Assembly (NCBI RefSeq): GCF_042231085.1
Contig: NZ_CP102579.1
DNA length: 64,000 nucleotides
Direction: 5' to 3' (one strand)
DNA from: Corallococcus interemptor
Lineage (GTDB): Bacteria > Myxococcota > Myxococcia > Myxococcales > Myxococcaceae
In this document: positions 37,285 to 39,705 of the stretch, in pieces
Layout of the letters: the number at the start of each line of letters is the position of its first letter
Numbering within the stretch: position 1 is the stretch's first letter
Translations under genes and position numbers: made by a program
Notes under the pieces: generated by a model
Database searches by the model: none
Told to the model about the DNA's origin: nothing
What the model saw: only the letters and a program-made list of their open reading frames with translations

Positions 37285-39705
37285 ATGCACACCACCCCCA
37301 AAGCCTCGCCGCGCAACGCCACCCGGCTGATGGCCACGACGTCCACCGCCACCAACTCCACCCTCGCGGATCAGGTCACCGCGCTCTTCGCGGCCCAGCC
37401 CGTCTCCGGCGACAACCCGGTGGGCAAGGCGGCGCGCTCGGCGCTGGTGGGGCGCCTGCAGGGGGCCACGCCGGGCCGGCACTCCGAGCCCTATTGGATG
37501 CCCTCCGGCCAGACCTTCCTGCAGCTCTTCTTCCCCAACTACCACGCCGACCCCAACCAGGGCGCGGTGACGACGGCCACCGGCCTGAACGACTCCTGGT
37601 GGTCCAGCTTCGCGGTCGTGACGCTCTGCCAGGCGATGTACAACATCACCTCGAACCTGCGTCCCCAGCTCAAGCAGCCGGACATCAACAACCAGGTCTC
37701 GGCCAGCAACGCGACGCTCCAGCCGAAGCTGAACGCGCTGTACAGCCAACTGCTGCGCACGACGCCCAACGCCGTCGCGACCGCGCTCGCCGCCATCCCC
37801 CAGGGCCAGTGGTCGCAGGCGGCCTCCCTCTACTCCAGCTACCTCAGCAACCCGGCGTGGATCTCGGCGAAGGTGGCGCAGGCGGCGAGCCACCAGTGGA
37901 CCGACCAGACGTGGGAGCTGTTCCACCACTGGCTCAAGCTCCAGTTGCTCGGCATGTCGAACGCCAGCATCGACGCGCTGATCAACCAGCTCATCGCGGC
38001 CCAGCTCCCGGTGCCCGCCTCCGTGTCCGCGGGCCGGTGGGAGGCGTACCTGCCGTGGATGAGCCCGCTGTCGCTCGACTGGAACGACCTCAAGGGGCCG
38101 GCCACGCCCGGCATCCTCGCCCAGGTGTGCATGACCACGCCGGGGGCCATGTGGCCGTCGTGCATGAACGAGGAGAACTCGTTCGAGTTCACCGCCGACG
38201 GCCAGCCCGGCAACCGGTGGCGGGCGCCGCCGGGAGGGAGCTGCTTCCTCGCGGGCGCCAGGGTGCTGATGGCGGACGGCGGCATGAAGAACATCGAGCA
38301 GGTCCACCCGGGCGACCAGGTGCGCACGCGCTCCGGTTCCGCCCAGGTGCTCGCCACGCCCACGCTCGTGCTCCAGAACGAGGAGGTCTACGGCTTCAAC
38401 AACCTGGGGTTCCGCTTCACCGGCACGCACCCGTTCCTCACGCTGAACGCCGCCAGCGGCCAGGGCGCGCAGCTCGCGTGCGTCCAGCCGGTGGACCTGA
38501 TGAACACCGTGCCCACGCTGTCGGCGCTCGGCATCGCCACGCTGGAGCCGGGCTGCCCGCCGCTGATGGGCTGGTCCGGGGATGCCCCCACGCCCCTGCC
38601 GGTGACCTCGCTCCAGGCCCAGCCCTGCACCGGCGCCACGACCATCCACGACCTGGTGGTGGACTTCGACCACCAGGGCCTGTCCGAGTACATCGTGGGC
38701 GACGGCACCACGATGTGCGTCGTATCGAGCGAGGTGCCCCTCTTCGGCGTCGCCCCGCTCGCCGCCTCGGCGCTCTCGTCCGTGATGTCCGGCTCGTGGA
38801 GCACCGTGCAGCGGACGCTCCAGGCCGTGCCCGCGGACCAATGGGAGGAGGTCCTGTACCAGGGGCTCTTCACCGTCTCGACCTACCTGCTGCCGGACGC
38901 CATCCGCGCCATCCAGGGCAACGCGCCGCCCCCGCCCATGGCCGCGGCCCCGCCCGCGGCGATGCGGGAGATGGCGCGCGGGATGGCGAGCGCCATGACG
39001 GCGAAGACGGCCGCCGGGACGCCCACGTACGACAACGCGCAGGGGGCCTACTTCGCGGCCCTCACCTCCATCTTCGGCGATGAAATCAACGACGCCATCA
39101 ACCTGGGCTGGCGCAGCTTCACGCCCATCGGTGACCTGGACGCGACGATGCTGGCGGTGTCGGTCCTCTCGCTCGAGCTGCTCGCGGACGACGCCATCCC
39201 CGCCAGCGAGTCGCTCACGCTGGAGGTCCAACTGGGCCGCGGCGCGGCCGCGGTGACGCGCACGCTCCCGCCCTTCGGCCCGCTGTCGAGCGCCAGCTAC
39301 GCCCAGCAGTTCGACCAGGTCCTCTATTTCGACAACTGGCGCCCGTCCGAGCCCGGGACGGGCGTGGACACCTGGACCCTCACCTTCAAGCTGCGGCGGC
39401 AGGACGGCAGCGCCCTGCCCCTGCGGGGCGTGACGCCGCTCTCCGCGCTCTTCGAGGCCGGCTACCGCCTCTGCTCCGCCGCGGTGTTCACGCCCGCGGG
39501 CGCCATCGTCGGGCAGGTGCAGTTCGACGTGCGCCCGCTGGTGCCGCAGCTCATGGTGACGGAGGGCCAGGCCCGCTCCGCCTGGGGCGCGAGCCAGGCC
39601 TCCTCATTCGCCCAGCAGCTCGGGACGACGATGGGCGCGCTGCTGGCCCAGCGCTTCCCGGCGGCGGTGCAGCCCTACGTGCCGCCGAACGCCCCGCCCC
39701 CCTGA
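37285..39705 (+). CDS. Hint (intein/hedgehog-like, BIL-type) domain protein
   Basis: ggaga RBS 6 nt upstream of the ATG. 806 aa. Central PPGGSCFLAGARVLMADGGMKNIEQVHPGDQVRTRSG is a canonical Hint N-terminal splice-junction block, and TIHDLVVD is a downstream block. No signal peptide. Confidence 0.7.
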   Translation: MHTTPKASPRNATRLMATTSTATNSTLADQVTALFAAQPVSGDNPVGKAARSALVGRLQGATPGRHSEPYWMPSGQTFLQLFFPNYHADPNQGAVTTATGLNDSWWSSFAVVTLCQAMYNITSNLRPQLKQPDINNQVSASNATLQPKLNALYSQLLRTTPNAVATALAAIPQGQWSQAASLYSSYLSNPAWISAKVAQAASHQWTDQTWELFHHWLKLQLLGMSNASIDALINQLIAAQLPVPASVSAGRWEAYLPWMSPLSLDWNDLKGPATPGILAQVCMTTPGAMWPSCMNEENSFEFTADGQPGNRWRAPPGGSCFLAGARVLMADGGMKNIEQVHPGDQVRTRSGSAQVLATPTLVLQNEEVYGFNNLGFRFTGTHPFLTLNAASGQGAQLACVQPVDLMNTVPTLSALGIATLEPGCPPLMGWSGDAPTPLPVTSLQAQPCTGATTIHDLVVDFDHQGLSEYIVGDGTTMCVVSSEVPLFGVAPLAASALSSVMSGSWSTVQRTLQAVPADQWEEVLYQGLFTVSTYLLPDAIRAIQGNAPPPPMAAAPPAAMREMARGMASAMTAKTAAGTPTYDNAQGAYFAALTSIFGDEINDAINLGWRSFTPIGDLDATMLAVSVLSLELLADDAIPASESLTLEVQLGRGAAAVTRTLPPFGPLSSASYAQQFDQVLYFDNWRPSEPGTGVDTWTLTFKLRRQDGSALPLRGVTPLSALFEAGYRLCSAAVFTPAGAIVGQVQFDVRPLVPQLMVTEGQARSAWGASQASSFAQQLGTTMGALLAQRFPAAVQPYVPPNAPPP

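Follow-up and report, generated by a model that had tools for sequence, protein, structure and literature searches.

What does a Hint domain do when the residues with which inteins complete splicing are missing? The question is raised by the middle one of three neighbouring genes in a 64,000-nucleotide stretch of the Corallococcus interemptor genome (assembly GCF_042231085.1, contig NZ_CP102579.1), which we call the window throughout. Hint domains provide the chemistry of protein splicing and of Hedgehog cholesterol modification, and protein-engineering tools have been derived from them. The central domain of the 806-residue protein encoded by this gene is a member of the Hint superfamily by its fold and by its catalytic motifs. 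From the family alignment and the predicted structure, we think it probable that the protein is a single-turnover self-processing precursor of Hedgehog-like layout, in which a cargo region (residues 1-319) is followed by the Hint domain (320-485) and an accessory region (486-806), and that it cleaves at its N-terminal junction only. An earlier note on this DNA had proposed a domain of the bacterial intein-like (BIL) or Hedgehog kind that acts on the N-terminal side alone; the residue pattern, its conservation and the predicted fold agree with that proposal, except that the N-terminal region comprises 319 residues instead of about 300. The parts of the gene, with residue numbers of the protein, are as follows.

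37285..39705, + strand: gene of the Hint-family protein, 806 residues plus stop; GC content at third codon positions (GC3) 0.98.
37285..38241, + strand: N-terminal cargo domain, residues 1-319.
38239..38244, + strand: predicted scissile junction between Ser319 and Cys320, the block A nucleophile (family alignment, coordinates checked).
38242..38739, + strand: Hint domain, residues 320-485.
38419..38430, + strand: block B, T379-G-T-H382 (TxxH), then invariant Pro383 (family alignment, MAFFT alignment with inteins, and hidden Markov model (HMM) matches).
38650..38652, + strand: block F Asp456 in an (I/V/L)-Y-D-L motif (alignment with intein block F, VFDLTV or VYDIGV).
38725..38733, + strand: S481-S482-E483, the slots of the intein His-Asn and +1 residues, after the last Hint beta strand (477-481) of the model.
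38740..39129, + strand: helical region, residues 486-615 (secondary structure and confidence of the model).
39130..39543, + strand: C2-like beta-sandwich, residues ~616-753.
39544..39705, + strand: C-terminal helices (754-798), Pro-rich tail and stop codon (model; E760 and W767 are conserved).

The segment 38236..38739, read in the frame of the open reading frame (ORF) 37285..39705 (+), translates to GSCFLAGARVLMADGGMKNIEQVHPGDQVRTRSG...TIHDLVVDFDHQGLSEYIVGDGTTMCVVSSEVP, also written GSCFLAGARVLMADGG...TIHDLVVDFDHQGLSEYIVGDGTTMCVVSSEVP in agreement with the earlier note, which had recognised a textbook Hint N-terminal block in it. This block is as described, and its C-F-L-A-G match is not fortuitous, because the family profile, Pfam searches over homologues and Foldseek all lead to Hint at significant scores. 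By itself, the 806-residue protein gives nothing against Pfam and NCBIfam beyond matches of four Hint families to the first 36-65 residues of the domain (E 2e-4 to 2e-3), all below the gathering threshold. Over 17 homologues, Hom_end_hint is found in 15 (best E 6e-8) and Vint likewise in 15 (best E 9e-8). A family profile run against PDB sequences picks up the PI-SceI intein at its N-terminus (E 4.8e-9) and extends to block B in the Prp8 intein, BIL2, the C. thermocellum BIL and 8w20. The AlphaFold2 (AF2) model built on the family alignment has a mean predicted local distance difference test (pLDDT) score of 80.2, mostly 84-94 over residues 320-485, and shows the horseshoe-like all-beta arrangement with adjacent N- and C-termini that is expected of a Hint fold. 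Foldseek searches with this model agree independently, giving template modelling scores of 0.74-0.80 to BILs, with BIL2 as the closest structural neighbour of the domain. Blocks A, B and F also align by MAFFT with the Hint domains of Ssp DnaB, Npu DnaE, Mxe GyrA and Drosophila Hh-C, the last of which is identical to 1at0/6td6.

The residues required for an N-S acyl shift, namely the block A Cys, TxxH and the block F Asp, are all present across the family. In a MAFFT alignment of 121 full-length members, to which all conservation counts given here refer, Cys320 is kept in 119 and the Phe321 that follows it (the +2 residue) in 107. Thr379 of block B is found in 103 members, with Ser in 11 more, His382 in 116 and Pro383 in 120, while block F Asp456 is kept in 116 and Gly472 in 119. 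The -1 residue before Cys320 is Ser (104), Cys (11) or Gly (4), a small residue that follows a flexible Gly/Ser/Pro linker, as expected of a scissile site. Positions conserved in at least 90% of members cluster in the Hint domain (C320, G351, H382, P383, D456, G472 and E483), while those that reach this level in the cargo are all structural (Pro, Gly, Trp, Tyr, Phe and Leu), a distribution which argues that selection acts on the Hint chemistry. Judging from these sequences, thioester formation between Ser319 and Cys320 is likely.

Matters are different at the domain's C-terminal end. The His-Asn pair that the earlier note could not find in this one protein is missing from the whole family: slots 481 and 482 are His-Asn in 0 of 121 members, slot 481 being variable (Ser 33, Ala 30, Asp 14, Glu 12, with Thr among the others) and slot 482 mostly Ser (71), Ala (24), Pro (17) or Thr (6), with Asn in one. 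This result is independent of the choice of alignment, as across columns 386 to 499 His reaches at most 28 and Asn at most 22 members in any one column, and an HN dipeptide occurs in the region in only three, at non-homologous positions. The +1 slot, where inteins carry Cys, Ser or Thr, is Glu483 in 119 members, and no intact HN(C/S/T) junction exists at these slots. Without the Asn and the +1 nucleophile, Asn cyclisation, a branched intermediate and splicing have no conserved basis, and the alignment thus excludes Asn-driven C-terminal cleavage and splicing as conserved activities. The Hint fold does end at SSEV, where the note had placed the end of the segment, but the protein does not, as another 320 conserved residues follow. 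Two related sequences, P0016 and P0033, carry F-H-N-(C/A) about five residues past the equivalent of Glu483, a superficially intein-like end that is not kept elsewhere.

In the mechanism that we propose, Cys320 would attack the carbonyl of Ser319, aided by Thr379, His382 and Asp456, and the resulting N-S acyl shift would produce a thioester. Because there is neither a terminal Asn nor a +1 nucleophile, this thioester would have to be resolved from outside, and we infer cleavage in which the nucleophile may be water, a thiol or some specific acceptor. This would free the helical cargo of 319 residues, or else tether it through its C-terminus, leaving the Hint domain and accessory region behind. 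Such outcomes have precedents: the Hedgehog Hint thioester is resolved by cholesterol (PMC9163320), that of BIL2 in Tetrahymena BUBL by a lysine of a substrate protein (PMC8616854), and B-type BILs, which have all intein motifs except the C-terminal one, cleave their N-terminal junction (PMC7765530). Glu483, in the +1 slot beside the thioester, is predicted to be the general base that activates the incoming nucleophile, which the accessory region may position; we favour this arrangement because the order of the parts is Hedgehog-like and a near-invariant Glu stands in the slot facing the thioester. The Hint protein may further work with a giant membrane protein encoded upstream of it, as a two-gene module.

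Support for a precursor of this kind comes also from the breadth over which its architecture is maintained. An exhaustive HMM search returned 4289 matches at E<=1e-3, most of the top matches being single full-length alignments of 750-810 residues, and the full-length architecture is kept in 246 cluster representatives at E<=1e-30. A word-indexed homologue search had found 17 full-length relatives, which suggested a very rare family; the 246 representatives rule this out.

The Hint gene lies between two giant genes on the same strand, designated G1 and G2.

33420..37271, + strand: G1, upstream giant; ORF of 1283 residues, GC3 0.94; the Met at 33459 is a possible true start.
39744..43655, + strand: G2, downstream giant; 1303 residues, a paralogue of G1.

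The three co-directional genes are separated by gaps of 13 and 38 bp, the Hint gene starting 13 bp past the G1 stop with a GGAG ribosome-binding site, and a scan for promoters and terminators inside the block gave nothing over shuffle expectation. G1 and G2 are 41.6% identical over 1294 residues. G1 has no known domain save a weak C-terminal He_PIG Ig-like domain, together with four to five hydrophobic, transmembrane-like segments at about residues 760-990; giants generally have four to five such segments at about residues 760-1000, and the weak C-terminal He_PIG match recurs in 8 of 13. Profiles of the giants found nothing below E 0.8 among PDB sequences, and the giants had no matches in NCBIfam, PADLOC or PHROGs. 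Neither PADLOC nor PHROGs matched G1, the Hint protein or G2, which sets the module apart from known defence systems and phage elements. The 10-16 homologues of G2 are all named 'hypothetical'.

What makes the giant relevant is how strictly it accompanies the Hint gene. A giant homologue (25-44% identical, ~1,200-1,300 residues) lies just upstream on the same strand in 20 of 20 prokaryotic loci, comprising three metagenomic or draft loci and 17 from a scan of one genome per species, whereas a second giant is present only in Corallococcus and at two other loci (L001 and L003). The hosts belong to Myxococcota, Cyanobacteria, Acidobacteriota, Bacillota, Actinomycetota, and Alpha- and Gammaproteobacteria, which we count as seven phyla. 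At a further locus, L004, there is only a 363-residue ORF that resembles the C-terminal third of the giant. Clustering of all flanking ORFs revealed no third conserved gene. In one metagenomic protein (P0164, 2214 residues, JGI), the two partners are naturally fused, with the giant at residues 47-1335 and the whole cargo-Hint-accessory module at 1457-2152, joined by a poly-Pro linker; in P0106 and P0165, Ig-like repeats of the giant's C-terminal type precede the cargo domain. The obligate neighbourhood and the P0164 fusion suggest that the giant is the cargo's partner or its target, and we argue from these gene arrangements that the giant and the Hint gene form a two-gene module. The flanking giants to which the earlier note had pointed therefore matter as an obligate conserved partner, though not as a recognisable toxin context.

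Within the protein, conservation is highest in the cargo. In the model the cargo is all-alpha with a small beta hairpin, a fold for which we found no known relative, and its tail, FEFTA.GQPG..(Y/W)R..PGGS, is conserved. No catalytic-type polar residue in it is conserved among the 121 members, and an apparent Cys115/His215 pair is lost in the wider family. Because only structural residues are kept, and this pair is not, we read the cargo as binding or structural and not as an enzyme. Identity with distant relatives is 33-64% in the N-domain, 31-58% in the Hint domain and 13-47% in the C-terminal parts. Four sequences of 261-301 residues (P0116, P0118, P0134 and P0169) consist of the N-domain only and all stop at ...QPGxxY(R/H)x, 4-6 residues before the Ser-Cys junction; a deletion in the amphioxus model P0011 starts at the same spot. 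This shared stop could reflect an exon boundary, assembly breaks at the Gly-rich linker, or naturally split genes. The cargo match at a locus from a metagenome-assembled genome (L022:3665-6873) is interrupted by ~1 kb, and P0119 has repeats of the form HFYTTS..ERDNAI..GFT.EG inserted within the cargo domain, from which it appears that the N-domain tolerates large insertions.

Downstream of the Hint domain, the model places helices at 491-606, a beta-sandwich at 622-752 and two further helices. The helical region includes a low-confidence Pro/Ala-rich loop (547-555) and ends in a conserved LGWR, with R610 in 107 members. Residues ~616-753 are predicted to form an eight-stranded beta-sandwich of the C2 type; no Pfam C2 family matches the 806-residue protein, and the only well-conserved polar residues in 616-800 are D748, R750 and E760. 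The post-Hint region is 86% identical between Corallococcus species and diverges gradually, with no cassette break. Hydropathy analysis found no signal peptide, transmembrane segment or other hydrophobic segment in the Hint protein.

Several observations weigh against one-sided self-cleavage as we have described it. The Pfam and HMM matches span blocks A and B only. Blocks F and G were placed by reading the MAFFT alignment by eye together with the strand positions of the model, where SEYIVGD corresponds to intein HNFVAND, and (Y/C)(L/V)VSS-E to IIVHN-S (the hyphen marking the junction), in keeping with the last strands at 468-472 and 477-481; this placement rests on MAFFT and the model strands because hhalign, run with the Hint sub-alignment on single sequences of Hedgehog-C and Ssp DnaB, aligned block A only or block B only. 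No Asp equivalent to D46, the general base of Hedgehog, was identified, and the general-base role of Glu483 is one that we purely infer. Only the fold supports the C2-like assignment, and among the 121 members we saw no conserved canonical Ca2+-binding Asp cluster in that domain. Finally, although a signal peptide is absent from the Hint protein, the C-terminal Ig-like domain of the giant suggests the extracytoplasmic side, and the fusions put the Hint module after that domain.

Among alternatives, the one that survives best is that the thioester is resolved by a specific acceptor, with Glu483 as general base, so that the cargo ends up covalently tethered. The acceptor could be a membrane lipid recruited by the C2-like region, in the style of Hedgehog lipidation, or an amine or hydroxyl on the giant or another protein, in the style of BUBL ligation. 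Much in the family would suit such a transfer, including the Hedgehog-like layout with an accessory region conserved family-wide, a C2-like fold after the Hint domain (C2 domains usually being lipid-binding), the precedent of BIL2, the obligate linkage and existing fusion to a giant membrane protein, the invariant Glu483, which is consistent with a base for a poor nucleophile, and the strong conservation of the cargo tail beside the junction. However, this is a candidate reading in which the adduct itself is argued by analogy. No conserved Ca2+- or lipid-binding signature is seen in the C2-like domain, no other part of the protein evolves as fast as the accessory region, a giant is missing beside the amphioxus copies, and plain hydrolysis or thiolysis fits all the sequence features equally. 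We regard adduct transfer as a tentative possibility.

Alternatively, the Hint domain may be catalytically silent, a structural or interaction module in an uncut protein whose Cys, His and Asp serve folding, metal binding or redox sensing. The sub-threshold Pfam scores of the single protein and the restriction of HMM alignments to blocks A and B lean this way, as does the occurrence of Zn at the Hint active sites of Hedgehog (PMC9163320) and BIL2 (PMC8616854). What makes a silent domain unlikely is that exactly the acyl-shift set of Cys1, TxxH and block F Asp hardly varies among the 121 members, which come from seven bacterial phyla and an animal, while other positions drift, and that the small -1 residue and its flexible linker look like those of a scissile site.

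Hint domains serve as releasing modules in polymorphic toxins, such as those of the MafB type, and the earlier note had expected a polymorphic-toxin or surface-protein setting here. In that case, a variable toxin at the C-terminus would be set free by the Hint domain, and the giants would serve in delivery or immunity; a predator (Corallococcus) and a symbiont of invertebrates (Endozoicomonas) are indeed among the hosts, and giants with hydrophobic segments could be translocators. The PT-HINT combination of PF07591, variable toxin and immunity gene is nevertheless not found. PF07591 is unmatched at E<=0.1 in 17 of 17 members, the residues for C-terminal cleavage are missing, and the C-terminal region is conserved and diverges only gradually. 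No toxin, immunity, secretion or defence domains, Rhs and PAAR included, were detected in G1, the Hint protein or G2, no third conserved gene offers itself as an immunity candidate, and the Hint protein has neither a signal peptide nor a transmembrane segment. The expected setting is thus not supported, and we reject the toxin reading as very improbable.

We also reject, as having almost no chance of being correct, a true and possibly degenerate intein that splices the N- and C-terminal regions of a host protein together: blocks A, B and F do resemble those of inteins, the PI-SceI intein gives the best sequence match and some homologues are named as homing endonucleases, but there is no terminal His-Asn (or Gln or Asp in its place), the +1 residue is Glu instead of Cys, Ser or Thr, the 166-residue mini Hint has no homing-endonuclease domain, no Hint-less full-length homologue or insert-free allele occurs among the best 150 of 4289 matches, and in every member the domain has the same location and diverges together with its flanks, contrary to what a mobile insertion would show.

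Returning to the preferred reading of a precursor cut at its N-terminal junction, the family most invites comparison with Hedgehog and Hog proteins (Hall 1997; Burglin 2008, PMC2362128; PMC9163320). Both have a cargo, then Hint, then an accessory region; both have a small residue followed by Cys and Phe at the junction (G-C-F in Hedgehog, S-C-F here, the -1 residue being Ser and not Gly) and share TxxH; neither has a terminal Asn, so that only the N-terminal junction would be expected to react; and in both, conservation is higher in the cargo than in the processing part. The differences are equally clear. The family lacks a signal peptide, is bacterial and is coupled to a giant membrane protein. 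Its accessory region is a ~320-residue helical and C2-like region, against a ~60-residue sterol-recognition helix-loop-helix in Hedgehog, to which it may nonetheless be analogous in its role, and its cargo has a novel helical fold in place of the Hedge/DD-peptidase domain. The slot of Hedgehog Cys143 (Ala-Ser-Cys143, SCYA) is taken by Glu483, and the slot of D46 (D303), about 46 residues past Cys320 and located by spacing only, is Arg in 109 of 121 members and Glu in the 806-residue protein. Of the two Pfam models that the earlier note had named for a check, PF07591 gave nothing, as described above, and the Hedgehog model PF01079 matched at positions 11-54 of its 213 only, below threshold.

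With respect to BILs, we follow the definitions of the A type and of the B type (Amitai 2003) as summarised in PMC7765530. A-type BILs (2lwy from C. thermocellum; BIL2, 6tmm/6y75) end in His-Asn, whereas the family never does; BIL2 is nonetheless instructive in showing that the thioester can be passed to an outside nucleophile. The motif content of the family is that of B-type BILs, with blocks A, B and F present and G absent, for which N-terminal cleavage is expected. Its context differs, as BILs occur in hypervariable regions of non-conserved, often secreted proteins, while this Hint domain has a fixed place in a conserved three-domain protein. To our knowledge, an invariant +1 Glu has not been described for BILs.

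Other Hint systems are more distant. Compared with class 1 inteins (PI-SceI/VMA1, Ssp DnaB and Npu DnaE), the family lacks a recognisable host protein as well as the block G His-Asn, +1 nucleophile, endonuclease domain and intein-free alleles already discussed. Vint, known from eukaryotic VWA-Vint proteins (PF14623; 8r2c), is similarly a divergent Hint domain that is seen mainly through motifs A and B, and sub-threshold PF14623 matches occur in 15 of 17 members, but the VWA and Vwaint domains that accompany it are absent from the family. The bacterial C-terminal Hint-like subgroup of Burglin 2008 (PMC2362128; MXAN_6253, STIAU_1829 and plu1731), some of it myxobacterial, is likewise divergent; its Hint domains lie at the extreme C-terminus of proteins with signal peptides, whereas here 320 residues follow the Hint domain and there is no signal peptide, and this difference in architecture makes it a different family.

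A Hint annotation of the protein already existed, as it is 100% identical to NCBI 'Hint domain-containing protein [Corallococcus coralloides]', and database names of its relatives are 'hypothetical protein', 'Hint domain-containing protein' or 'Hint domain-containing homing endonuclease'. New here are the large family with its Hedgehog-like three-part layout, the +1 Glu, the novel cargo fold, the C2-like accessory domain, the obligate giant partner and the copies in animal genomes; a literature search found no description of the cargo-Hint-C2-like family or of the giant. The endonuclease name, borne by P0037 (Paenibacillus sp. TH7-28) and P0115, is misleading, as these proteins have no endonuclease domain and inherited it from a partial match to PF05203 (Hom_end_hint). 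P0115 (4119 residues, Mucilaginibacter angelicae) and P0140 (1757 residues) contain at least five tandem Hint repeats ~140 residues apart, recalling the BUBL polyprotein, and are unrelated to the family outside the Hint domain.

The animal copies come from amphioxus. Several full-length paralogues (P0009-P0011, P0028 and P0173) align over 96% of the query at 33-35% identity. The copy at L006:10001-13410 (Branchiostoma floridae, CM022896.1) is split by a ~1 kb intron, the first exon being short, lies between an XK-related gene and a TPT transporter, and has a GC content of 51% against 40% for the locus. Chromosome-scale contigs, flanking animal genes and the intron rule out contamination as its origin. 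These copies were thus probably acquired by horizontal transfer from bacteria to an animal and then duplicated. No giant is adjacent to the B. floridae copy, and a word-indexed search, of limited sensitivity, found no giant homologue in amphioxus. Two further family members, P0015 (L005, an ENA contig of 1.8 Mb) and P0016 (a 1.86 Mb contig), are surrounded by sparse, short ORF calls and have no adjacent giant; these megabase contigs may come from eukaryotic hosts other than amphioxus.

Our findings bear on broader questions about Hint domains. If the proposed mechanism is correct, the family would be a clean natural case in which a Hint domain has become specialised to cleave, or transfer, on one side only, and it allows one to test whether bacteria attach proteins to lipids or partner proteins through Hint thioesters. 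By analogy, and only as a doubtful prospect, the giant-Hint pair might be a hitherto unrecognised, ATP-independent covalent-tethering system, a bacterial counterpart of Hedgehog lipidation or BUBL ligation present in at least seven phyla, with its Hint part captured by amphioxus. The family also bears on the origin of eukaryotic Hog and BUBL-type domains, and is a candidate for a new self-cleaving tag that can neither splice nor cleave at its C-terminus. As it is strictly paired with an uncharacterised membrane protein of 1,300 residues, it offers a handle on two orphan families together, and the intron-bearing chromosomal copies in amphioxus add a probable case of gene transfer from bacteria to animals.

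The genes around the three-gene block have housekeeping or envelope functions: those on one side encode FolD, Smr, adenosine deaminase, PyrD and ornithine cyclodeaminase, and those on the other side a GT4 glycosyltransferase and a Wzy-type ligase. At 46808..48469 (- strand), a 553-residue protein with a full-length DUF6178 match (E 3e-134) adjoins this Wzy-type O-antigen ligase and the GT4 glycosyltransferase. At 52543..57753 (+ strand), a 1736-residue protein carries an M36 fungalysin-type metallopeptidase domain, a PA domain and multiple PKD/Ig-like domains, and is probably a large secreted protease.

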